64,000 nucleotides of DNA from Gammaproteobacteria bacterium (GTDB taxonomy: Bacteria > Pseudomonadota > Gammaproteobacteria > UBA4575), in assembly GCA_965242685.1 (NCBI GenBank), contig OZ251487.1, positions 865,199 through 929,198 on the forward strand, in the 5' to 3' direction. This document shows positions 3,414-58,409 of this stretch, piece after piece. Under the pieces are notes generated by a model. That model ran no database searches, was not told the origin of the DNA, and saw nothing but the letters and a program-made list of their open reading frames with translations. The position numbers were made by a program, and so were the translations under genes. Numbering within the stretch: the stretch's first letter is position 1; each line of letters opens with the position of its first letter.

Positions 3414-4799
3414 TTATTCCGTTTGGGACAGCAGCACTTCAGCTTGAGGTTTTTGTGAATACAGTGAGTAGGCACCAAACCTCATCTGGTGTGCGCGCCC
3501 CAGCTTGAGTTCATAAAAATCTACCGTGAACTCGTGCGTAAGTTTCTCGCCGTCCCAACTGAACAGCTTGAAAAACTGTTCGTCCTTCTCGCCGGTATTA
3601 TCCCAATTACCCAACAAGGAAGACGTAAAGTAAGTGCGCTTGCCGTCCCAGCTTTGCGAAATCATGTTGACCTGAGAACCGATTACATGCTCATAAACCT
3701 GCTCGGGTTTAAAGGGGTCTTCAATATTAAAAAAGCGGGTTTTGCCATCCAAGAAAGTCTGTACCCAAAGCCCTTTGTCATCCGCAGTGATGGAAATATC
3801 AACCGGTAGCCAAGTTCCCAAGGGACTGCCTTCGGTGCTGATGCCGCCCACGTCCTTCGCCTGCCATTCGCCCGCCTCATCTTCATAGATCAACCAGATT
3901 CTCGAGGTCAATGCGGTAGTGGTCAAGCAATAGTTATTTCGTGAACCCCACGCGCAGCGGATTTCCAGTGGCGCGCCGGGCACCTCAAAAACTTTCTTGG
4001 GTTTGCGTGTGTGCAGGTCCCAAACCACGACAGTATTACCGAAGCGTTTCATGGCCTCCTCGTCACTTATCATCTCCCCTACATTCATCATGTAGTTGGA
4101 CCAACCGGTAAACGAAGAAGTAACCATTATGTTTCGCCTGGGCAAAACACGTACGTCATAGCCGTATCCATCGGCAACGTTGCCTACCTTTTTCGCACCA
4201 CGCAAGTCTTCATCGGTTGGCATCCAATGGGCGGCGATAAAGTCGCCCTCATTGGAGTATTCCGCAAGACCGGTGCGTCCGCCATGGTCAACGTTGTTGG
4301 ACAAGGCACTGACCATGATACGGCCCGGTAGTGCATACATGGTGTGCGGCCCTACCATACCGCCAGTCTTCTCAACAAAATCGGTAATAACCTTGTGTAA
4401 CCTGGGTTTGGATGGATTGGAATGAACATCAAAGATAAATATCTTGTTGCTGTCCAATCCTCCTGCAAACAGATAACGACGGTCATCAGTGAGGCCGGAA
4501 TGGTGGGCCTCGTTGCGTCCCCCCACGGAAAGCACGTTGACTACCTTCCCATAGTGCTCTGAAGCCGGATTGACGGAAACGGTAACCAATTTGTCCTGTT
4601 CATCTCCCAAACCTTCTACCCCCAACGTCCATATATATACATAGTCTTCTTGACCAACAATTTTTGCCATGTAGGGAGACATGCACGTCTCATCTGCAAC
4701 GGCAGCAGAGTGAAAACCAAGCAAAGACACCAGCACGGTACATATAAATGTAAGCGTGCCCCATGCCCATCTGAATTTTAATTTTGTCACTTTCTTCAT
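3414..4799 (-). CDS. mtoX: selenium-binding protein 56 (SBP56) family protein, methanethiol oxidase MtoX homologue, periplasmic
   Basis: Signal peptide. Blocks NEAHHSGL and KPRLHKVI align with ELHHSGWN and PKLHKVIEP of human SELENBP1. Length 461 aa matches bacterial MtoX. Sits with SCO1/SenC and MauG-like genes, as described for Hyphomicrobium mtoX clusters. Confidence 0.85.
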   Translation of the reverse strand: MKKVTKLKFRWAWGTLTFICTVLVSLLGFHSAAVADETCMSPYMAKIVGQEDYVYIWTLGVEGLGDEQDKLVTVSVNPASEHYGKVVNVLSVGGRNEAHHSGLTDDRRYLFAGGLDSNKIFIFDVHSNPSKPRLHKVITDFVEKTGGMVGPHTMYALPGRIMVSALSNNVDHGGRTGLAEYSNEGDFIAAHWMPTDEDLRGAKKVGNVADGYGYDVRVLPRRNIMVTSSFTGWSNYMMNVGEMISDEEAMKRFGNTVVVWDLHTRKPKKVFEVPGAPLEIRCAWGSRNNYCLTTTALTSRIWLIYEDEAGEWQAKDVGGISTEGSPLGTWLPVDISITADDKGLWVQTFLDGKTRFFNIEDPFKPEQVYEHVIGSQVNMISQSWDGKRTYFTSSLLGNWDNTGEKDEQFFKLFSWDGEKLTHEFTVDFYELKLGRAHQMRFGAYSLYSQKPQAEVLLSQTE

Positions 4800-8321: not shown

Positions 8322-10124
8322 CTATTTGTCTACACGTAAAATAGCCAGAAATGCTTCTTGTGGAATTCCCACTTTACCGATTTTTTTCATGCGTTTTTTA
8401 CCTGCCTTCTGCTTTTCCAGCAGTTTCTTTTTGCGCGTTACATCTCCGCCATAGCACTTTGCAGTAACGTTTTTCCGCAACGCCTTGGTTGTCGTCCTGG
8501 CAATGATTTTCGATCCGACTACAGCTTGAATGGCAACATCATACATCTGTCTGGGAATAATCTCCTTCATCTTAACGGCAAGCTCTCTACCGTAAGATTG
8601 TGCCCGATCTTTGTGTACAACGACCGACAGCGCATCTACTCTTTCGCCATTGATCAGTATGTCTAGTTTAACCAAGGGTACCGCCGAAAAATGTGAAAGA
8701 TGGTAATCAAATGAAGCGTAGCCGCGACTCAGCGATTTCAGTTTGTCAAAAAAGTCCAGGACGATCTCGCTCAAAGGCAACTGAAAGATGACCAATACTT
8801 GATTGCCGTAATAGTGCAAGTTTTTTTGTGTGCCGCGCTTTTCAATACACAAGGTTATCACGCTGCCTACGTATTTATGTGGAACTAGGATTGAGGCAGA
8901 GATAATCGGCTCTCGAATTTCCTTCACCTTGTTTGCCGCCGGCAAAGCGGACGGATTATGTATGTGTTGAATTTCGCCATCCGTAGTGTGTATTTCATAA
9001 ACTACCGTTGGCGCCGTGGTTATCAACGCCAGTGCATATTCACGCTCAAGACGTTCTTGAACGATCTCCATGTGCAACATACCAAGAAACCCGCATCGAA
9101 AACCAAACCCCAGCGCGTCGGACGTTTCAGGTTCATACGTAAACGCGGAGTCATTGAGCCGAAGCTTTTCCAGTGCACTTCGAAATGCCGCGTAATCGTC
9201 CGCGTTGACTGGGAATACGCCGGCAAAAACGTTGGGGCGAACTTCTTTGAAACCTTGCAACGGCCGTTTGGCAGGCGCAACAACCGACGTGAACGTGTCC
9301 CCCACTTTTGCTGCGGAAATATCTTTTATCCCGCAAATCACGTAACCGACCTGCCCCGACTTTAGGGTTTTGGACTCGGTACGCTTAGGTGTAAATATAC
9401 CTACCTTTTCAACCTGGTAGTCTCTCCCCGAAGACATCGCCACAACTTTTCCCCCACACTTGATTTCACCCTGCACCACGCGCACCAATGATATGACCCC
9501 GACGTAACTGTCAAACCACGAGTCAATGATAAGTGCCTTGAGAACGCCGCTTGCCGAACCTTTCCGCGAACTCACAGGGGCGGGAAGTCGTTTTACTATC
9601 GCCTCCAACACATCTTCCACACCTTGTCCAGTTTTGGCGCTCACCAACAAAGGTCGGGAGGCATCGATACCGATAACATCTTCGATCTCAGCTGCAACCT
9701 TTTCTGTATCGGCGGAAGGCAGGTCGATCTTATTTAATACCGGAACGATCTCCAGGCCGAGATCGAGCGCGGTGTAGCAATTTGCGACACTTTGCGCTTC
9801 TACACCTTGAGACGCATCAACGATAAGCAGTGCCCCTTCACAGGCCGCCAAAGAACGAGAAACTTCGTAAGAGAAATCAACGTGCCCGGGGGTATCGATG
9901 AAATTAAGTTGATAGATATACCCGTCGTTTGCCCGATAACGCAGTGACACACTTTGGGCTTTTATAGTGATACCACGCTCACGTTCCAGCTCCATGGAAT
10001 CCAGCACTTGTTCGCTCATCTCACGTTCGGACAAGCCACCGCAATGCTGAATAAAACGATCCGCTAAAGTGGTCTTGCCATGATCGATGTGTGCGATGAT
10101 GGAAAAGTTTCGGATACGCTCCAT
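8322..10124 (-). CDS. lepA: elongation factor 4 (translational GTPase LepA)
   Basis: [24 protein letters not shown]1 motif, [14 protein letters not shown], about 600 aa. Confidence 0.95.
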
Positions 10125-10204
10125 AAAACTTTGGAGTTAAGCGGAAAATCCTTCAGTCATGGTAAGCAAGGGGCCAGATTATCGTTCATTTTTAATAGCT
10201 TTCA

Positions 10205-11644
10205 CTACTCTTTTTCCGGTACACGCATTGCCAAAAATTCCGGCCCGTGCGGACGTTGAACTAGTAGAGAAAAAAACTTGCCCGGCATCAGGGCCTCGAC
10301 GCGCCGTTTGAAATCATCAACGTCATCAATGCGGGTGCCGTCAATCATTTGAATGACGTCACCTTGGCGGACGCCGGCCCGCTTGCCTACATTACTTTTT
10401 ACCTCCAACACGACAAGCCCGCCCTGCTCCAGTTCCATCGTTTTCTTTTCTTCTTCTGTAAGTGCCCGTAGAGATATACCTAAAACGGTGCTTTCAGTCC
10501 CTTCATCGACCTGCTTCCCGCCGGCAAGTAGCGGATCTTTTTCCGGCAGCTGACCAACTTTCAGTCTGAGGGTTTTCATCTTGTCGTCACGCATTACCTT
10601 GATCGTGACCATTGCGCCAACCTTGGTTTTGCCTACCATCGCCGGCAGGGCGGCAGAGTTTCTTACTTCTTTGCCGTCGTAAGCAAGAATAATGTCTCCC
10701 ACTTTAATTCCTGAGGTTTCGGCCGGGCTATCCGGTAAAATTTTCGCCACCAATGCACCGATGGGCTTTTCCATGCCGAACGATTCAGCCAATTCGCGCG
10801 TCACTTCCTGGATGTAAACACCCAGCCACCCTCTTGACACATAGCCATTTCTCTTGAGCTGATCCACCACGTCCATTGCATCTTCAATAGGAATTGCAAA
10901 AGATAGCCCCATGAATCCGCCGGAACGAGTATAGATTTGAGAATTGATCCCCACAACGTTACCTTCCAGGTCAAACAAAGGGCCTCCCGAGTTGCCAGGA
11001 TTGATGGCCACGTCAGTCTGAATGAAAGGTACATAGTTTTCGCTTGGCAGACTACGCCCCTTGGCACTTACAATGCCCGTGGTAACGGATGCATCAAAGC
11101 CGAAGGGAGAACCAATCGCCAACACCCACTGGCCAACTTTTACATCATCGGAAGAACCAAGTTTTACAACAGGCAACCCTGTCGCTTCGAGTTTCAGTAA
11201 AGCAATGTCGCTACGCGGGTCACTGCCGACCAATTCGGCGGGCAGCTGCCGGCGGTCGCTCAGCTTTACAATAATCTCATCGGCACCTTTGACGACATGG
11301 TGGTTGGTAATCACGTAACCGTCCGTCGAGAGGATAAAACCGGAACCGAGTGAACGTGAATTGAAAAACTCTTCGCCGTTACCGCCCCGTTCACCAAAAA
11401 ATCTACGTAACAAATCACCAAAAGGCCCTTCTTCAGGAAATTCGGGCATATCCAGCTGCGGAGGGATTGCCTGACTAAGCTTTTTCTGCTTGCTTGTACT
11501 GATGTTCACTACCGCATCGGCGTTTTCCTCAATTAACTTGGTAAAATCTGGCAGGCTGTAATGGGCATGTGCGTGGATGGTCATTGCAACCAACAACGTT
11601 CCAACGACAAAAGCATTAGCGATAAAAATACTCCATCTCTTCAT
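10205..11644 (-). CDS. degP: Do/HtrA-family periplasmic serine endoprotease (DegP/MucD) with two PDZ domains
   Basis: Signal peptide. Catalytic-triad blocks TNHHVV, D..ALLK, GNSGGPL. Position directly after rseB as in sigma-E operons. Confidence 0.9.
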   Translation of the reverse strand: MKRWSIFIANAFVVGTLLVAMTIHAHAHYSLPDFTKLIEENADAVVNISTSKQKKLSQAIPPQLDMPEFPEEGPFGDLLRRFFGERGGNGEEFFNSRSLGSGFILSTDGYVITNHHVVKGADEIIVKLSDRRQLPAELVGSDPRSDIALLKLEATGLPVVKLGSSDDVKVGQWVLAIGSPFGFDASVTTGIVSAKGRSLPSENYVPFIQTDVAINPGNSGGPLFDLEGNVVGINSQIYTRSGGFMGLSFAIPIEDAMDVVDQLKRNGYVSRGWLGVYIQEVTRELAESFGMEKPIGALVAKILPDSPAETSGIKVGDIILAYDGKEVRNSAALPAMVGKTKVGAMVTIKVMRDDKMKTLRLKVGQLPEKDPLLAGGKQVDEGTESTVLGISLRALTEEEKKTMELEQGGLVVLEVKSNVGKRAGVRQGDVIQMIDGTRIDDVDDFKRRVEALMPGKFFSLLVQRPHGPEFLAMRVPEKE

Positions 11645-11813
11645 TATTTATACTCCGTTTTGATCCTGCATTTACTTACAATGTATAATGGTTATCTACC
11701 TTTGGAATTCCGGACTGAGGTAAGGTAAGCCAACCACACCAGTCTGTAAACTTCATCAAAAGTGAATAAGGCTCTATGTAGAAGCTGCCGTAATTTGCGG
11801 TTCGTATCGTACG

Positions 11814-12827
11814 TTATGGACGCGCATAAAAAACCGATGAACCAATCATTTCTACTACTTTCCCCGGAACTTCGCCCACGACCGTTATTCGATGTTGGTT
11901 AAAATTACGGATATAGGCGTTGATAACGCCTTTACTGTGTGCACCCTGATAGACGTATTGCGGGAGATCGACCTTACTTATAAATACAGAAACAGAGGCT
12001 AGCCCATCACTAAGTGCGATATGCTGCACCGGTCTTTTACTGGCACTCATCAAACGTCTTGTGACGCTATTCAGAGAAAATCCGGGAGGTAAATTTTTTA
12101 TTTCCCATGCCGGGTCGGGTTGCAGTTTCTCGGTGAGTCCCGTACCCGCCGTCTTCCAAGTATAATCATCCAATTTCACGCCAGGCTCAAACCATACATC
12201 AGGTACCGACTGAAGGGCTCGAAAACTTGTAAACATCATCTTCTCAATCACTTTTCCATTTGTGTCAAATGTTTTGGACTCCAGTAGCATACCTGATCCC
12301 GTGCCGATACATAGTTCGTGCCCGTAGCGAAGCTTATCCAGCGGTTCAAATCTTATTATTTTACAACGAAGCCCGGCAACACGTGCGTGACCCATTTCGA
12401 CAATTTCGTAATGGCTCAGCCGGCTTGCGGCCGCCGATACAAAGGAAGGCGGGAAACGATGTTTTGTATGGGCGGCTTCAATAACAACCAGTTTGTGTTT
12501 TGGCCAGATACACGTAAGTACACCCCGATCACGAATGATTTTGCGTGCATCTCCGGTCAACGAAATTAGCTTCTCCCTAACACCGGCAGATGAATACTCA
12601 CGAACAACTTGCATGGTCTCAATACTTTCACCGTACATCAATACAAATGTACCCTGGTAACTGCCTACTTCCAAGGCGTGGTTCATTCTATCAAGGAGTG
12701 CCTGCACGCCGTCTTCCGAATAGGCGGCAGATACACTGCCGACCAAAAACACCACAAACAATATGCGTATCAGAAACACGCGATGACTACTCGTTATTTT
12801 CAGACTGAATCTGGTCATAACCAACAA
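11814..12827 (-). CDS. rseB: sigma-E regulatory protein RseB/MucB
   Basis: About 337 aa periplasmic protein downstream of the rseA-like gene. Blocks NLPPGF, SDGLASVSVF and ITVVGEVP parallel E. coli RseB (WLPQGF, SDGLFSFSV, ITIVGELP). Confidence 0.8.
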   Translation of the reverse strand: MLVMTRFSLKITSSHRVFLIRILFVVFLVGSVSAAYSEDGVQALLDRMNHALEVGSYQGTFVLMYGESIETMQVVREYSSAGVREKLISLTGDARKIIRDRGVLTCIWPKHKLVVIEAAHTKHRFPPSFVSAAASRLSHYEIVEMGHARVAGLRCKIIRFEPLDKLRYGHELCIGTGSGMLLESKTFDTNGKVIEKMMFTSFRALQSVPDVWFEPGVKLDDYTWKTAGTGLTEKLQPDPAWEIKNLPPGFSLNSVTRRLMSASKRPVQHIALSDGLASVSVFISKVDLPQYVYQGAHSKGVINAYIRNFNQHRITVVGEVPGKVVEMIGSSVFYARP

Positions 12828-13368
12828 TTCTTACATGAGGCATGGAGGCACGAAGAGAAGCATATTCTGCATGATTGACAACATAACTATTAAACTCCGC
12901 CAGTGCATCGAGACTCAAAACAAAATTGTGCAATTCTTGCTCGCCGATACGTTGCGCGTCACCATCTTCAACAACTTGCCCGGCCACGATCCGGGCACCG
13001 GCACCATCGGTATCCACGACTGGTGGCGTCAAGCTTTGAAAGGCAACCAACAAAAACACGGCCAGCGATGCGGCAAGGGCCAAGCCTGTCACAGCTTTCA
13101 TCTTTGCACGCCCTCGTCCCGACTCATTTGAACTTGAATCCGATTTCACCATGCAGGCCACCCTATCCACCACGTCATCGGAAAGGTGACCCTGTAATCG
13201 AGACGGCAACTGTCCGCGCATGGCATGACCGATGATATTGTAACGCTGAAATTTGGCGCGCAATTCACGGCTGGACTGCATTTTTCTCAAAATACGCCGC
13301 ATCTCAAACTCAGAGATGTCCTCATCATCAAACAACCTCGACAAGAGTTCTTGGTCGGTTGCCCTCAT
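12787..13368 (-). CDS. rseA: anti-sigma-E factor RseA/MucA
   Basis: N-terminal anti-sigma domain pattern (LSRLFDDEDISEFEMRRILRKMQSSRELRAKFQRYNIIGHAMRG), a single TM segment, and position between rpoE and rseB. Confidence 0.75.
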   Translation of the reverse strand: MRATDQELLSRLFDDEDISEFEMRRILRKMQSSRELRAKFQRYNIIGHAMRGQLPSRLQGHLSDDVVDRVACMVKSDSSSNESGRGRAKMKAVTGLALAASLAVFLLVAFQSLTPPVVDTDGAGARIVAGQVVEDGDAQRIGEQELHNFVLSLDALAEFNSYVVNHAEYASLRASMPHVRIVGYDQIQSENNE

Positions 13369-13388
13369 GGTAAATTTACCCCGTGTAG

Positions 13389-13973
13389 TTAGCTCAGCAA
13401 GGGTTTAAGACGTTTGTCAATGGCTTCACGTGCCCGAAAAATTCTTGATCGTACAGTACCTATAGGGCATTCCACTACCGCCGCAATTTCATCGTAGGAC
13501 AATCCCCCAATCTCGCGTAGCGTAATCACTGTCCTCAGGTCATCTGATAGTCCCTTGATAGCTTGATAGATCGTTTTTTCAATTTCATTCGTAAGCGTAT
13601 CTCTCTCGGGCGTGCCGCATTCTTTCATGGCAGCCACACACTCCATGTTCTCCGCACTTTCCACATCTACGGTATAAGCAGGAACTTTTCGGTTCCGTAG
13701 CATTATATAATTTTTAGCGGAATTTATTGCAATCCTATACAACCACGTGTAAAAAGCACTGTCTCCTCGAAATTTTGCAAGGCCTTGATAAGCCTTTATA
13801 AAAGTCTCCTGTACGATGTCTTGGGCCTCATCTTCGTCCTTTACATAATGAATAGCCAGATTAGCAATCTTATATTGGTACTTTACAACCAGTGCATCGA
13901 AAGCCGCCGAATCGCCCTGTTGAGCCTTCTTGACTAGCTCCGAGTCATTACTATCTCTGCCCACTTCGGCCAA
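13389..13973 (-). CDS. rpoE: ECF RNA polymerase sigma factor sigma-E (sigma-24)
   Basis: 194 aa. Sigma-70 region 2 and region 4 patterns (YKIANLAIHYVKDEDEAQDIVQETFIKAY; SYDEIAAVVECPIGTVRSRIFRARE). Divergent from nadB as in E. coli. Confidence 0.9.
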   Translation of the reverse strand: MAEVGRDSNDSELVKKAQQGDSAAFDALVVKYQYKIANLAIHYVKDEDEAQDIVQETFIKAYQGLAKFRGDSAFYTWLYRIAINSAKNYIMLRNRKVPAYTVDVESAENMECVAAMKECGTPERDTLTNEIEKTIYQAIKGLSDDLRTVITLREIGGLSYDEIAAVVECPIGTVRSRIFRAREAIDKRLKPLLS

Positions 13974-33663: not shown

Positions 33664-33755
33664 TGGCGGAGAGAGAGGGATTCGAACCCTCGGTGCCCCG
33701 TTGAGGACACACTCACTTTCCAGGCGAGCCCGTTTAACCACTCCGGCATCTCTCC
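33664..33755 (-). tRNA. tRNA-Ser (anticodon GGA), 92 nt with long variable arm, CCA encoded
   Basis: Minus strand GGAGAGAUGCCGGAGUGGUUAAACGGGCUCGCCUGGAAAGUGAGUGUGUCCUCAACGGGGCACCGAGGGUUCGAAUCCCUCUCUCUCCGCCA. D-loop, anticodon loop CUGGAAA, long extra arm, T-loop GGUUCGAAUCC, acceptor pairing 5' GGAGAGA with 3' UCUCUCC. Confidence 0.85.
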
Positions 33756-54999: not shown

Positions 55000-55096
55000 C
55001 CCTTTACTATAAAGTTTTTTCATATATTTAGTATTGCTTGCCAGACAAATAATTATTTGGTATCAAAACGGGCATTTTTAAGAGAAGCTTCATTAC

Positions 55097-56137
55097 ATGG
55101 CAACTCAGAGGCAAACCGTGAAAAGGAAGGCCGCCGTCCGAAATAAGACCGCGGCACAAAGGAAGGCCGCGACTCCAAAGAAGGCCACGGCGCAAAGGAA
55201 GACCACGACTCCAAAGAAGGCCACGGCGCAAAAGAAAGCCACGGTGCAAAGGAAGGCCACAACTCCAAAGAAGGCCACGGCACAAAGGAAGGCCGCAACG
55301 CCAAAGAAGGCCGCGACGCAAAAGAAGGCCACGGCGCAAAGGAAGACCGCAACTCCAAAGAAAGCCGTGACGCAAAAGAAGACCGCGGTGCAAAAGAAGG
55401 CCGCGACGCAAAGGAAGGCCACAACTCCAAAGAAAGCCGCGGCGCAAAGGAAGGCCACGACGCAAAGGAAGACCGCAACTCCAAGGAAGACCGCGACTCC
55501 AAAGAAGACCGCAACTCCAAAGAAAGCCACGGTGCAAAGGAAGACCGCGACTCCAAAGAAGGCCGCAACGCCAAAGAAGGCCGCGACGCAAAGGAAGGCC
55601 GCAACTCCAAAGAAGGCCGTGACGCAAAAGAAGACCACGGTGCAAAGGAAAGCCGCGACTCCAAAGAAGGCCACGACTACAAGGAAGACCGTGGCGGAAA
55701 GGAAGGCCGCAGCAGAGAAAAGGAAAAGACGTACCGGCCCGCCGAAGAAACGCTCCGATCCGGATAAGGGCTATATGAACCCGGAACAATTAGCGCATTT
55801 TCGTGATGTTTTGCTGCGCCGAAAACAAGATATATTCGATGAAGTCAGCCGAACTGTGGATCACATGAAAAAAGAGGCGAGCCAGTTTGCAGACCCCGCC
55901 GACCGCGCCACACAAGAGGAAGGATTTAGCCTGGAGCTACGTACCCGCGACCGCGAAAGTAAATTGGTGAAAAAGATCAACCAAGCCCTGGCGTCCATTA
56001 AAGCGGACGAATACGGCTACTGTAAATCTTGCGGAGTAGAAATAGGTTTAAAAAGATTGGAGGCGCGCCCTACCGCTACACTGTGCATCGACTGCAAGAC
56101 GTTACAAGAAAGGAGGGAGAATCAAGTCTATACGTAG
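55097..56137 (+). CDS. dksA: DksA/TraR-family RNA-polymerase-binding factor with a ~215-aa N-terminal Lys/Ala/Thr/Pro-rich repeat tail (histone-H1/AlgP-like)
   Basis: C-terminal 130 aa contains the DksA coiled-coil acidic tip (ADPADRATQEE) and C4 zinc finger (CKSCGVEI...CIDCK). N-terminal region is ~18 imperfect repeats of TPKKATAQRKA. Confidence 0.8.
   Translation: MATQRQTVKRKAAVRNKTAAQRKAATPKKATAQRKTTTPKKATAQKKATVQRKATTPKKATAQRKAATPKKAATQKKATAQRKTATPKKAVTQKKTAVQKKAATQRKATTPKKAAAQRKATTQRKTATPRKTATPKKTATPKKATVQRKTATPKKAATPKKAATQRKAATPKKAVTQKKTTVQRKAATPKKATTTRKTVAERKAAAEKRKRRTGPPKKRSDPDKGYMNPEQLAHFRDVLLRRKQDIFDEVSRTVDHMKKEASQFADPADRATQEEGFSLELRTRDRESKLVKKINQALASIKADEYGYCKSCGVEIGLKRLEARPTATLCIDCKTLQERRENQVYT
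55112..55720 (+). repeat. about 18 tandem copies of a 33-bp (and 15/18-bp half-unit) coding repeat
   Basis: Visible periodicity actccaaagaaggccacggcgcaaaggaagrcc repeated head-to-tail. Produces mirror-image repetitive ORFs on all minus-strand frames. Confidence 0.85.
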
Positions 56138-56178: not shown

Positions 56179-56397
56179 TTACTCATCCTCACCGCTTTTT
56201 TCCCAATCCCAAGGTTCTTCCTTAGCAATGGCGAAAAAAAGCCAAAAATTTCCAACCAACATGACGATAAGCAACACCGCTCCACCCAGTGCCCAAAGTG
56301 GCTCACGAAAGTTGTCGTTAAAACCGAAAAAATTGAGAATCCCAACAAATACGGCCGTCCAAAGAGCCATCACTACCAATGCTTGAAATGTACGCAT
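56179..56397 (-). CDS. small two-TM membrane protein (72 aa)
   Basis: AGGAGA SD 6 nt upstream of the ATG. Two hydrophobic helices with an acidic C-terminus. Confidence 0.45.
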   Translation of the reverse strand: MRTFQALVVMALWTAVFVGILNFFGFNDNFREPLWALGGAVLLIVMLVGNFWLFFAIAKEEPWDWEKSGEDE

Positions 56398-56437: not shown

Positions 56438-57526
56438 TCATCGCCCACCGGGCATTGAGCTTGCATCCAGAAACTTGTCAAAAAAGATATTGTCCTTTTT
56501 CATGCCTTGTTCAACCATTACTTTAATGGCTGCATCAACCATAGGCGGCGGGCCACATAGGTAGCCCTGCGCCTCGCCCAATAATATTCGACCGGTATCC
56601 ACATAGGCGGTCTTCAAATGATCGGTTACCAGTCCCCTGGCGCCATCCCAATCGCTATCTTCCGGCTCCATGTTGAGGACCGGAATAAATTCAAATGAGT
56701 GGCTGTTATGCCACTGCGAGCCAATTTCGGCTATTTCTTCCAAACAGTACAGGTCTTTTTGTGTACGCGCACCAAATAAAAACAGGCAGTCTCGCTGCAC
56801 TCCCTCGTTTACGGCCGATTCCAAAACGGCCTTGATCGAACTGATGCCGCTGCCGCCGGCAATGCAGACGATGGGGGCGTTTTCCGGACGCAGCCAAAAA
56901 TGGCCATAGGGGCCCGCGACCGTCATTTTTTCGCCGGTGCGGTCTTCGGCAAACAGCCATTCCGTAAATTCGCCACCCGGCACCAGGCGCACGAAAAAGG
57001 TGACTTCGTCTTGGGCTTCATTTTCCGGTGCCTTCGCATAGGAGTAGGAACGCGGCGCACTGAGTCCGGTGTAGCCGATCTCTGCGTATTGGCCCGCAAT
57101 TCCGCTACGAGAGGGCAACGGGTAATCGGAGGTAATCACAATTTCCTTGATGTCGTGGGTCAAGTCCCTGATGCGGCTGAGGGTGCCTTCGTATGAGACG
57201 ATTTGGGAAGCATGCGAGGCATCATCGAGGGCGACTTCTATTTCAACGTCACTCTTTAGGTGGGTCTGACAGGCGAGGATCATCCCGGCCTTCAGCTGGT
57301 CCGGGTCCAAAACATAGGAGAAATCCGTCAGCGACTTGGTCTTGCCTTTTTTCAGGGTGCACTTGCAGGTGGTGCAGCTTCCTACACGACAGTCATGCGG
57401 CCACGGGATACCAAGCTCTAATGCCGCATTTAACAGATTATCGCCCGCCTTTACAGTGAATCCATGCTCACCGGAGTTGACACTTGCATGCCAGTCTTTT
57501 TTACCGCCGCCAAATAATCCGAACAT
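56438..57526 (-). CDS. 2Fe-2S ferredoxin / FNR-type FAD-NAD(P) oxidoreductase (monooxygenase/desaturase reductase-like)
   Basis: N-terminal plant-type ferredoxin cysteines (CRVGSCTTCKC ... C), FAD-binding RxYS-like block (RSYS), and NAD-binding GGSGISS. Confidence 0.75.
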   Translation of the reverse strand: MFGLFGGGKKDWHASVNSGEHGFTVKAGDNLLNAALELGIPWPHDCRVGSCTTCKCTLKKGKTKSLTDFSYVLDPDQLKAGMILACQTHLKSDVEIEVALDDASHASQIVSYEGTLSRIRDLTHDIKEIVITSDYPLPSRSGIAGQYAEIGYTGLSAPRSYSYAKAPENEAQDEVTFFVRLVPGGEFTEWLFAEDRTGEKMTVAGPYGHFWLRPENAPIVCIAGGSGISSIKAVLESAVNEGVQRDCLFLFGARTQKDLYCLEEIAEIGSQWHNSHSFEFIPVLNMEPEDSDWDGARGLVTDHLKTAYVDTGRILLGEAQGYLCGPPPMVDAAIKVMVEQGMKKDNIFFDKFLDASSMPGGR

Positions 57527-57603: not shown

Positions 57604-58230
57604 TCAGACATTGATTGAAATATCTCGCAAGCTGCCCGAGTTGACGTCCTCCGCCGTAGGTAAGCAATTGTATGGCTCCAATTTTTCCTTGCTTGTAGAG
57701 GGATGGGACTTTACCTTTTCATACCAGGCACTTACATGCGAACGAGAGCTTATCAAGTCGCCCGCGCCACGTATTTCGAGCAAGTTACAACATGCCGACC
57801 AGTGGATGTCCGCCAATGAAAAATCCCCGCATATAAAATCACCCTTCTTCGGGCGATTTTGTAGCTGCTGATCCAATCCGTCAAAAAGTGTCGCCAGGCC
57901 GGCTTCGTCGATGTCGTCACCCAACAGCGGCTGGACTTTTTCCACGACAATGCCCGCCCATTGATACATTACTGCCCGAAGTACCCCATTGCGCGGCACC
58001 AAAGACGGACCAAATCCCTTGTCGTCCAAATATGACATCACCGCATAGGTGCCATACACTAAAAAATCAATGTCTTGTAATGCAGGGCCTATGCCGTAAG
58101 GGGATTTTTCCAGAAAACTGCTGTCATCCAATCCACTGATGATCTGCGCTTCAATATCTACCCCTTTCTCGCCTGCCGTCTGCAAACATTTTCCAGTATT
58201 GACACAACTTGGGTGTCCACTCAAAATCAT
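57604..58230 (-). CDS. glutathione S-transferase-like protein
   Basis: Thioredoxin-like N-domain and helical C-domain pattern (VMSYLDDKG, FICGDFSLADI). Start set at the MILSGHP Met. Confidence 0.55.
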   Translation of the reverse strand: MILSGHPSCVNTGKCLQTAGEKGVDIEAQIISGLDDSSFLEKSPYGIGPALQDIDFLVYGTYAVMSYLDDKGFGPSLVPRNGVLRAVMYQWAGIVVEKVQPLLGDDIDEAGLATLFDGLDQQLQNRPKKGDFICGDFSLADIHWSACCNLLEIRGAGDLISSRSHVSAWYEKVKSHPSTSKEKLEPYNCLPTAEDVNSGSLRDISINV

Positions 58231-58409
58231 TTTTGTTCTTAGCTGATCGCCAATCATATCTCCCCCTACTGATACAGTTCATCGGGCCGGCTCTTTACCG
58301 CCACCCCAAACATTAAAAATAAACAGCTCTCAACAAATGAACACAATTAAGACCCTACCCAACCAAAATTTAAGTCGGACAGGCCTTCAATGTATAAAAA
58401 GCCGAGGCT

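Follow-up and report, generated by a model that had tools for sequence, protein, structure and literature searches.

The dksA gene in the 64-kb stretch of DNA that we analysed (hereafter the window) encodes a DksA core joined at its N-terminus to a long basic repeat tail. We propose, at a probability of roughly 55%, that this is a housekeeping DksA whose polycationic, disordered tail serves as a non-specific polyanion tether, most probably to nucleoid DNA.

The DksA core and its genomic setting

The coding sequence occupies positions 55097..56137 of the + strand and consists of 346 codons followed by a TAG stop. The ORF list gives it as a single uninterrupted frame, as the initial annotation had claimed, and the call is backed by Pfam, NCBIfam and PDB matches and by intact syntenic orthologues. 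The same annotation placed a DksA domain at the C-terminus, which was borne out by matches to Pfam DksA_N (PF21157; aa 231-301, 6.7e-29, 100.4 bits against a cut-off of 27) and zf-dskA_traR (PF01258; aa 306-339, 1.6e-11, 44.5 bits against 24.9), to the dksA equivalog model TIGR02420 (158.7 bits against 115.5) and to the E. coli DksA structure 1tjl, residues 23-149 of which align with aa 218-344 of the window protein (E = 5e-46). The enterobacterial full-length model NF008045 scored 173.5, which is under its cut-off of 289.

The core comprises aa 226-346 (55772..56134, + strand) and, on the basis of the 1tjl alignment and an AF2 model, contains the coiled coil, the globular zinc-finger domain and the C-terminal helix, with predicted core helices at aa 229-262, 267-282 and 285-302 (pLDDT 78-89). 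At the coiled-coil tip lies the DxxDxA motif D266-P-A-D269-R-A271 (55892..55909, + strand), in which D266, D269 and A271 correspond to E. coli D71, D74 and A76 in the 1tjl alignment. It is followed by the C4 zinc finger C309-x2-C312-x17-C330-x2-C333 (56021..56095, + strand), which falls in the zf-dskA_traR match. The tip columns and the four cysteines are invariant in our protein alignment with relatives (alignment A1), and the motifs ADPADRATQEE and CKSC...CIDC that had been quoted for this protein are both present. Residues L290, K293, R324 and K334, also invariant in A1, align in 1tjl with E. coli L95, K98, R129 and K139, which we take to be the ppGpp site-2 residues of DksA; the source of this list is reportedly Ross et al. 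2016. With the tip motif, the C4 finger and all four ppGpp-site residues kept, the core is by sequence a bona fide DksA, its C-terminal 121 residues retaining every sequence feature for entry into the RNA polymerase (RNAP) secondary channel and for ppGpp site 2 binding. The window protein departs from its relatives at two near-invariant positions in A1 (E. coli W47 to R and E81 to G), and these changes, together with approximately 25 missing linker residues, might alter its DksA activity.

The gene order guaA-guaB / xseA-dksA / small ORF - Fer2 reductase - GST is kept in three syntenic loci (L018, L019 and L021), and L018 additionally shows the canonical dksA-gluQ adjacency. No second DksA was found in the 64-kb window. 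The window gene is the housekeeping dksA orthologue of its lineage. A search with GuaB placed an uncultured 'Gammaproteobacteria bacterium' lineage closest, with Chromatiales and Thioalkalivibrio next at ∼73-74%, and an exact-sequence look-up of the window DksA and XseA returned no identical record. A scan of genome contigs by exact peptide words missed the true relatives and gave distant DksAs, tail-less in Thiotrichaceae and Gallionella and tailed in Thiohalomonadaceae; K-rich ORFs that the scan also returned, such as L015 from Modestobacter, proved to be unrelated.

The repeat tail, its start site and its occurrence

The tail is built from an array of 33 in-register 18-bp units (aa 7-204; 55115..55708, + strand), delimited by a unit table, lag analysis, TRF, per-position variability and AF2, and a basic non-repetitive linker AAEKRKRRTGPPKKRSDPDKG (aa 205-225; 55709..55771, + strand), delimited by A1 and AF2. 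Each unit encodes a hexapeptide of consensus [A/T][A/T/V][P/Q][K/R]K[A/T], which occurs in two types, the P-type ATPKKA and the Q-type TAQRKA, and a K/R-K doublet recurs every six residues across the 33 hexapeptides in the assembled sequence. The initial annotation had instead described ∼18 tandem 33-bp repeats with an 11-residue unit. In the lag analysis the repeat DNA matches itself at 0.72-0.79 at lags 18, 36, 54, 72 and 90, while lag 33 gives a background value of 0.34, and the periods given by TRF are 36, 54 and 90, which together rule out a 33-bp periodicity; the true 12-mer of the tail is TPKKATAQRKAA, one residue longer than the unit first given. Contrary to what had been stated, the DNA repeats are also not perfect. 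The 18-bp units are about 72-80% identical, random draws from the position frequencies give 0.78, and the longest exact repeat in the array is 35 bp, and on these grounds a recent or perfect repeat expansion is rejected. An array of 33 units is itself far beyond chance expectation.

The description of the N-terminus as Lys/Ala/Thr/Pro-rich and of low complexity stands, since ∼205-225 aa form a Lys/Ala/Thr/Arg/Gln/Pro repeat. Residues 1-215 contain 53 K, 50 A, 46 T, 20 R, 18 Q and 14 P, and residues 1-218 carry a net charge of +72.5 with a pI of 12. The 30 core units vary solely by A/T/V, P/Q and K/R swaps, with acidic residues absent, and none of the 33 units has a frame-breaking change. AF2 gives aa 26-197 a pLDDT of <50 without secondary structure and predicts a helix at aa 199-213 that spans the array end and the linker; the tail is thus predicted to be intrinsically disordered. 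In A1 the relatives have a EEKKKKRIELLNKR...LPVDGITPYT linker that exceeds that of the window protein by ∼25 aa. The earlier likening of the tail to histone H1 and AlgP holds for composition and for its 12 TPKK motifs (13 when counted as [ST]P[KR][KR]) but not for homology. A Pfam search with the tail alone gave zero matches even at E <= 10, HC2 (PF07382) included, and KPAA repeats are absent (count 0), which places the tail outside both the HC2 and the AlgP KPAA families. As the tail has no Pfam family, the analogies with H1 and with the Streptomyces protein DdbA are compositional.

Upstream of the gene lies a promoter-like element (55038..55066, + strand) with a -35 TTGCCA at 55038-55043, a 17-nt spacer and an extended -10 TGgTATCAA at 55058-55066. 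The element is at the same time an imperfect inverted repeat (CCAGA..TTTGG). The pattern TTGCCAGA-N8-12-TYTGGTAT has one occurrence in the window versus 0 expected, and it is found once in each of the syntenic loci L018-L022, each time just upstream of dksA. By its consensus the element is a putative dksA promoter. A consensus promoter and terminator scan, which detected no + strand terminator after dksA, had overlooked this conserved element because the -10 of the element ends in A. A Shine-Dalgarno-like AAGAGAAG (55080..55087, + strand), read from the sequence, lies 9 nt 5' of the ATG, and the same position holds AAGGGAG in L022 and AAGGAG in L021. In six loci the promoter-like element, the Shine-Dalgarno-like site and the ATG lie directly 5' of the tail, and the first 39 nt of the window coding sequence are 97% identical to those of L020. 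When the gene is read from this conserved start, a polycationic N-terminal tail of ∼220 residues precedes the core, and the sequence evidence indicates that the fusion of tail and core is real. The ATG at 55775 (codon 227) is preceded 4 nt upstream by AAGGG, from which a tail-less form could also be made.

The fusion frame is intact both in the window and in the three complete syntenic orthologues L018, L019 and L021. With the frame unbroken and the DksA models matched, neither of the findings that the initial annotation had named as refuting it was obtained. The orthologue tails are 141-237 aa long and share the 6-residue basic periodicity while differing in sequence. Across the orthologues the net charge ranges from +46 to +103, with length and non-basic residues variable, and only L021 (+103) ranks above the window copy (+73) among those examined. 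This pattern suggests that selection acts on the charge pattern of the tail and not on its sequence.

We surveyed the 150 DksA clusters nearest to the DksA domain of the window protein, 118 representatives of which were assessable, for N-terminal extensions, as the initial annotation had recommended. Basic N-terminal tails were present on 68 of the 118 (∼58%), which, along with the precedents of DdbA (PMC3643593) and Xanthomonas (PMC5559785), contradicts the rarity that had been implied. HC2 matches of other tailed DksAs were sub-threshold (27-29 bits versus 40). On a neighbor-joining tree of the DksA domain, tail presence requires 31 parsimony changes, compared with a mean of 38 and a minimum of 29 when shuffled. 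In a literature search, no paper was found that describes gammaproteobacterial DksA tails as lysine-rich or disordered. Judging from the sequences surveyed, tailed DksA is common in uncultured Gammaproteobacteria, an architecture that is already known and little studied, and the window copy is an extreme example of this known DksA design.

Proposed role of the tail and alternative explanations

By analogy with the H1-like N-domain of DdbA, we propose that the tail is a non-specific polyanion binder, with nucleoid DNA as its most probable ligand. In E. coli RNAP-DksA complexes (structures 5VSW, 5W1T, 7KHE and 7KHI), the N-terminus of DksA lies outside the secondary channel, at its mouth, which would leave the tail clear of RNAP. 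It would then hold DksA concentrated on the chromosome beside its target and possibly add to DNA compaction, thereby coupling a stringent-response cofactor to chromatin. The ligand could also be RNA or polyphosphate (polyP) instead of DNA. A broader and more tentative proposal, which we would not yet favor, concerns a large part of the Gammaproteobacteria outside the enterics, most of them uncultured. Their only housekeeping DksA may be a chromatin-bound (or polyP/RNA-bound) polycation, the tail of which would change where and how this stringent-response cofactor encounters RNAP. If so, the tail might pre-load DksA on DNA, promote condensates with nucleic acid, or tie DksA availability to nucleoid or polyP state, a form of control absent from the E. 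coli paradigm.

It is unlikely, though deserving of attention, that the tail binds polyP or RNA in place of tethering DksA to DNA, acting as the KPAA domain of AlgP does on polyP granules. In that case DksA would be localized to or sequestered on polyP granules, ribosomes/rRNA or condensates, or its stability would be polyP-dependent. A charge of +73 confers no specificity between polyanions, and the AlgP tail (net charge +55) is found on polyP granules and is required for granule spacing (PMC9239181). PolyP is described as bound non-covalently by lysine-rich stretches (PMC12077175), and DksA reportedly controls how much polyP E. coli accumulates (Gray 2019). However, the window tail lacks KPAA repeats and is unrelated in sequence to AlgP and PhaF, the target of DksA, RNAP, sits on DNA, and DdbA, the sole DksA fusion assayed so far, binds DNA (PMC3643593). 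Somewhat less probable again is that the tail is translated yet near-neutral and lacks a specific role, being a low-complexity expansion that a permissive terminus tolerates. The wide differences in tail length and sequence between close orthologues, the weak clustering of tail presence on the DksA-domain tree and the fact that E. coli DksA functions tail-less are all consistent with such tolerance. This is contrasted by the persistence of high positive charge and of the 6-residue basic periodicity after the repeat sequences of the orthologues have diverged, by the complete lack of acidic or frame-breaking changes across 33 units, and by the basic tails that the majority of the closest DksA clusters carry; moreover, at an abundance like that of DksA, a +73 polycation would probably not be without physiological effect.

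We regard it as highly improbable that the repeat lies outside the protein, with translation starting near M227 and the repeat serving as a 5' leader, constituting a gene of its own or arising from mis-assembly. Such an arrangement would fit the AAGGG upstream of ATG 55775 and the public record of L021, in which automatic gene calling left only 121 aa of DksA and annotated the repeat region, on its other strand, with a 199-aa ORF. It would also fit the short-read contigs of two relatives, which terminate within the repeat and lend some support to the assembly hazard that had been suspected here. Yet the L021 frame is actually open for 359 codons from its ATG, and the opposite-strand ORFs over the repeat are low-complexity mirror artefacts, the sequences of which differ between the window and L021. 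In addition, the 18-bp unit preserves the frame, the conserved promoter-like element, Shine-Dalgarno-like site and ATG lie upstream of the repeat and not downstream, and an equivalent mis-annotation in Xanthomonas (XCV2557) was corrected by mass spectrometry (MS) and mutagenesis (PMC5559785).

Tailed dksA genes are prone to mis-annotation, in which DksA is called too short and a false ORF is placed on the other strand. They also interrupt assemblies made from short reads. To our knowledge, the mechanism of DksA has been established almost entirely with the ∼150-aa enterobacterial protein. If the tail, the charge of which in the window protein is among the highest seen, does tether DksA to DNA or polyP, then the stringent response of many Gammaproteobacteria from the environment would have to be modelled with a spatial or chromatin component.

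Comparison with known systems

The window protein resembles E. coli DksA (PDB 1TJL) in its DxxDxA tip, C4 zinc finger, C-terminal helix and ppGpp site-2 residues. E. coli DksA has 151 aa with an N-terminal segment of ∼30 residues, whereas ∼225 residues precede the YMN motif in the window protein, where the conserved lead-in G-x-x-PY-x4-GE-x-YM becomes GPPKKRSDPDKGYM.

With the KPAA tails of P. aeruginosa AlgP and PhaF, the C-terminal domain of histone H1 and Chlamydia Hc2 (PF07382), all of which bind DNA, the window tail shares the character of a disordered, cationic, Lys/Ala/Pro-rich repeat, and its TPKK fits the S/TPKK motif type of H1. The unit of the window tail is a hexapeptide, in contrast to the KPAA tetrapeptide of AlgP and PhaF, and the tail is Thr/Gln-rich and N-terminal whereas tails of the AlgP/PhaF/H1/Hc2 type are C-terminal.

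In the gammaproteobacterium Xanthomonas euvesicatoria a long form of DksA has 256 aa instead of the annotated 147 (Abendroth et al. 2017, PMC5559785). There the peptide AAPAAAKPAAKPVASK from a K/A/P-rich extension was detected by MS, mutagenesis bore out the upstream start, a spurious opposite-strand gene had been annotated over the tail, and a shorter 'processed' DksA variant was also observed (PMC5559785). The Xanthomonas extension is ∼110 aa long with a KPAA-like composition, as compared with the TPKK/QRK hexapeptides of the window; the opposite-strand annotation artefact is common to Xanthomonas DksA and L021.

Streptomyces coelicolor DdbA (SCO2075) consists of an H1-like N-domain and a DksA-like C-domain (Aldridge et al. 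2013, PMC3643593), and the window protein has its basic tail and DksA domain in the same order. The N-domain of DdbA alone binds and condenses DNA, while the DksA-like domain alone, which retains two Asp residues and the C4 finger, gives no EMSA shift (PMC3643593). The authors likened its lysine-rich short tandem repeats to the S/TPKK repeats of H1, a DNA-binding unit of that histone and a minor-groove type motif in the literature that they cite, and they describe DdbA as streptomycete-specific and as one of three actinobacterial DksA-like paralogues (PMC3643593). The DdbA extension of ∼93 aa has five S/T-A/T-A-K-K pentapeptides, compared with 33 hexapeptides over ∼200 aa in the window, and the window protein, in contrast to the actinobacterial DdbA, scores as a DksA equivalog of proteobacterial type and lies in housekeeping synteny. 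Going by the published description of DdbA, repeat type, equivalog score and synteny thus set the window protein apart from SCO2075 as an orthologue, and common descent of the two fusions is unlikely. If tethering is true, DdbA would be one case of a recurrent solution and not a genus-specific oddity.

The DksA core and its genomic setting

A single open reading frame on the plus strand runs from an ATG at 55097 to a TAG at 56137 and encodes 346 aa (ORF listing), exactly the span that the initial annotation had assigned to a DksA with a basic N-terminal tail. Its reading of the C-terminal third as DksA is borne out by matches to Pfam DksA_N (aa 231–301, E = 6.7e-29) and zf-dskA_traR (aa 306–339, E = 1.6e-11), by a TIGR02420 (NCBIfam dksA equivalog) score of 158.7 bits, above the cut-off of 115.5, and by alignment of aa 218–344 with residues 23–149 of E. 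coli DksA (PDB 1tjl, E = 5e-46). The 1tjl alignment places the DxxDxA motif of the coiled-coil tip at D266, D269 and A271, the C4 zinc finger at C309, C312, C330 and C333, and L290, K293, R324 and K334 opposite E. coli L95, K98, R129 and K139, the residues to which published work assigns ppGpp site 2 at the interface with RNA polymerase. All of these residues are invariant in an alignment of eleven tailed homologues. Two near-invariant core positions are changed, E. coli W47 to R (aa 242) and E81 to G (aa 276); at the first of these, the homologue at the syntenic locus L021 has Q. Every sequence criterion applied places the protein in the DksA family, and we regard its identity as a tailed DksA as highly probable.

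The order guaB (−), xseA (+), dksA (+), small ORF (−), Fer2-type reductase (−), GST (−) recurs around tailed homologues, which identifies the tailed gene as the housekeeping dksA orthologue by position. Complete copies include a 283-aa DksA at L018 (2.67 Mb contig), a 299-aa DksA at L019 (2.05 Mb contig) and, at L021 (1.76 Mb contig, GuaB 88% identical to that of the window), a frame open for 359 codons from its ATG, whose tail is (APKKKA/APKRKV)n with a net charge of +103. At L018 dksA is followed by gluQ, its canonical neighbour. No complete copy has an interrupted frame, and the window protein matches the DksA HMMs; neither of the failings the initial annotation had warned of, a broken frame or a lack of DksA HMM matches, was found. 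The window's GuaB is 80–98% identical to MAG proteins, with Chromatiales and Thioalkalivibrio next at about 73–74%; the lineage is an uncultured gammaproteobacterial one.

Downstream of dksA on the minus strand lie a 72-aa ORF that translates to a hydrophobic sequence (56179..56397), a Fer2/FAD/NAD reductase (56438..57526) and a GST-like gene (57604..58257), an order kept in L018, L019 and L021. In these three loci the run is followed by a small ferredoxin gene, with a fatty-acid desaturase gene additionally present in L018 and L019. L021, the closest relative with a complete locus, also carries, after guaA, genes for a 743-aa N6/N4 DNA methyltransferase and an 883-aa ResIII/restriction-endonuclease protein (9137–13458, +). 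The sole Rfam or ARAGORN matches in the window are a bacterial small SRP RNA (RF00169, 18993–19088, −, 50.9 bits) and a tRNA-Ser(GGA) (33664–33755, −).

A six-codon repeat encodes the tail

The first 218 residues carry a net charge of +72.5 (pI 12), and six residue types make up nearly all of aa 1–215, namely K (53), A (50), T (46), R (20), Q (18) and P (14); 12 TPKK motifs occur. AlphaFold2 predicts no secondary structure for aa 26–197 (pLDDT < 50), compared with a pLDDT of 78–89 for the coiled coil (aa 229–302). The proposed likeness to H1 and AlgP tails holds in composition but not in family: the tail alone has no Pfam match even at E <= 10, and it resembles H1, AlgP and Hc2 tails in composition only.

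The array had been described as about 18 perfect copies of a 33-bp unit. This unit is wrong, because DNA self-similarity is 0.72–0.79 at lags of 18, 36, 54, 72 and 90 nt and at background (0.34) at 33 nt, and Tandem Repeats Finder returns periods of 36, 54 and 90; the array is instead 33 copies of 18 bp. Residues 7–204 form 33 six-codon units in perfect register, with no insertions or deletions, on the pattern [A/T][A/T/V][P/Q][K/R]K[A/T]. P-type units (ATPKKA, with codons nearly always ACT CCA AAG AAG GCC) and Q-type units (TAQRKA) follow in irregular order, xxQPQPQQPQPQQPQQQPQQPPPQPPQPQQPxx. Nor is the DNA a perfect repeat: units are 73–80% identical at every distance, which equals the 0.78 expected from random draws on per-position frequencies, and exact repeats reach 35 bp at most (55288 and 55558). 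Variation is limited to A/T/V, P/Q and K/R exchanges plus a few synonymous sites, and the 30 core units contain no acidic residue. A 358-aa ORF of Modestobacter sp. (L015, 5389..6465, +), which lacks a DksA domain, has PTAQEK/KATAQKK repeats much like the Q-type units, probably through compositional convergence.

Among ten relatives the N-terminal part is 141–237 aa long and carries a net charge between +46 and +103. Its non-basic residues vary, being T/Q-rich in the window, A/P-rich at L021 and A/V-rich in others, while K/R positions recur at a period of six or a multiple of it in all ten, a sign that how the charge is spaced and how dense it is, and not the sequence, are under constraint. 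The window tail has Gln at the relatives' third Lys position, and its linker (55709–55771) is without about 25 residues of the relatives' EEKKKKRIELLNKR...LPVDGITPYT.

The warning of an assembly hazard was partly justified, in that two short-read contigs of relatives end inside the tail repeat, L020 87 nt into dksA (1–87, −) and L022 108 nt into it (1–108, −); the number of units in the window is the assembly's count. Miscounted units would leave the frame intact because the unit is 18 bp. L022 GuaB is 87% identical to the window's, and L020 is closer (GuaB protein 98%; guaB and xseA DNA about 92–93%).

Putative start signals and opposite-strand calls

Upstream of the tail, six loci share TTGCCAGA-N10-TYTGGTAT (window 55038–55063, +, with the element extending to 55066; L018 5943–5968; L019 5946–5971; L020 123–148(−); L021 4395–4420(−); L022 143–168(−)). 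The window contains a single copy, with zero expected, and each of the syntenic loci L018–L022 likewise contains one, always just 5' of dksA. In the element, TTGCCA can be read as a −35 and, after a spacer of 17 nt, TGgTATCAA as an extended −10; the element is also an imperfect inverted repeat (CCAGA..TCTGG). It would act as a promoter, perhaps an autoregulated one sensitive to ppGpp/DksA, or it may be an operator. Next come a G+C-rich stretch, a Shine-Dalgarno-like AAGAGAAG, which reads AAGGGAG in L022, and the ATG. Over its first 39 nt the coding sequence is 97% identical between the window and L020; neighbouring genes are about 92% identical, and inside the repeat identity falls to 81%. That the repeat is untranslated, or bypassed by an internal start, is very improbable since the promoter-like element and the Shine-Dalgarno-like site lie before the repeat and none of these start signals lies after it. 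A shorter form arising by processing or internal initiation, as in Xanthomonas, is possible.

Mirror ORFs of 253, 203 and 189 aa (55028..55789, 55053..55664 and 55105..55674, all −) overlie the window repeat. We rejected such opposite-strand ORFs as genes; they are low-complexity by-products that have one sequence in the window and another in L021. The public call at L021 gives a DksA truncated to 121 aa and a 199-aa ORF opposite the repeat (3782..4381, +), an artefact like XCV2557 in Xanthomonas (PMC5559785).

Distribution, candidate function and precedents

A phmmer search of 1.84 billion cluster representatives with the core alone (aa 217–346) gave 12,504 matches. Among the best 150 of these, 95 have at least 60 residues ahead of the YMN motif, where the canonical length is about 30. 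Domain and N-terminus are complete in 118 of the best 150, and 68 of the 118 bear a basic tail, which adds a median of 133 residues and has a net charge of about +40 in the median and +78 at most; 16 have a canonical N-terminus and 34 another extension. These frequencies describe the nearest clusters only, with representatives that may favour long members. Of the 34, some are rich in K/A but less densely charged, and others probably reflect start codons called too far upstream. The full-length search returned thousands of DksAs of 200–340 aa, named plainly 'RNA polymerase-binding protein DksA' by NCBI, many with sub-threshold matches to Pfam HC2. A Thiohalomonadaceae MAG has a tailed DksA of 246 aa; Thiotrichaceae and Gallionella MAGs have canonical ones. 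On the domain tree, tail presence changes 31 times against a shuffled mean of 38, at most a weak clustering.

The DksA core is intact, and the translated-looking, disordered, polycationic tail is kept as a property across orthologues. Such a tail would be expected to bind polyanions. Published E. coli RNAP–DksA structures put the N-terminus of DksA at the rim of the secondary channel; a tail attached at that point would remain clear of RNAP and might extend to DNA. Because of this position and the precedent of Streptomyces DdbA, we favour, at a probability of roughly 0.55, a role as a nucleoid tether, which would keep DksA concentrated close to its target and perhaps contribute to compaction. 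The same charge could instead serve polyP or RNA, as for AlgP, which we consider unlikely. A near-neutral low-complexity expansion, set beside the K/R period kept in all ten relatives, seems quite unlikely.

The feature is real and correctly located, with its repeat mis-described. Full-text literature searches found no paper describing lysine-rich tails of gammaproteobacterial DksA as such; the architecture is already known from a published Xanthomonas long form and from DdbA, and tailed sequences abound in public databases. Proteogenomics re-annotated X. euvesicatoria DksA from 147 to 256 aa, mutagenesis confirmed the upstream GTG start, and XCV2557, a gene annotated on the opposite strand, was dismissed as spurious (PMC5559785). 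The diagnostic peptide of that extension is AAPAAAKPAAKPVASK (PMC5559785), and the Xanthomonas protein therefore also has a K/A/P-rich N-terminal tail. For polyanion binding the best precedent is DdbA (S. coelicolor SCO2075), whose H1-like N-domain retards DNA in EMSA and reportedly condenses DNA, whose DksA-like domain alone does not bind DNA, and whose overexpression suppresses relA phenotypes (PMC3643593). DdbA shares the architecture but is not orthologous, and differs in repeat type and length; unlike DdbA, the window DksA is a proteobacterial equivalog in proteobacterial synteny, and with +73 and 33 units it is an extreme case of an architecture that is known but little studied.
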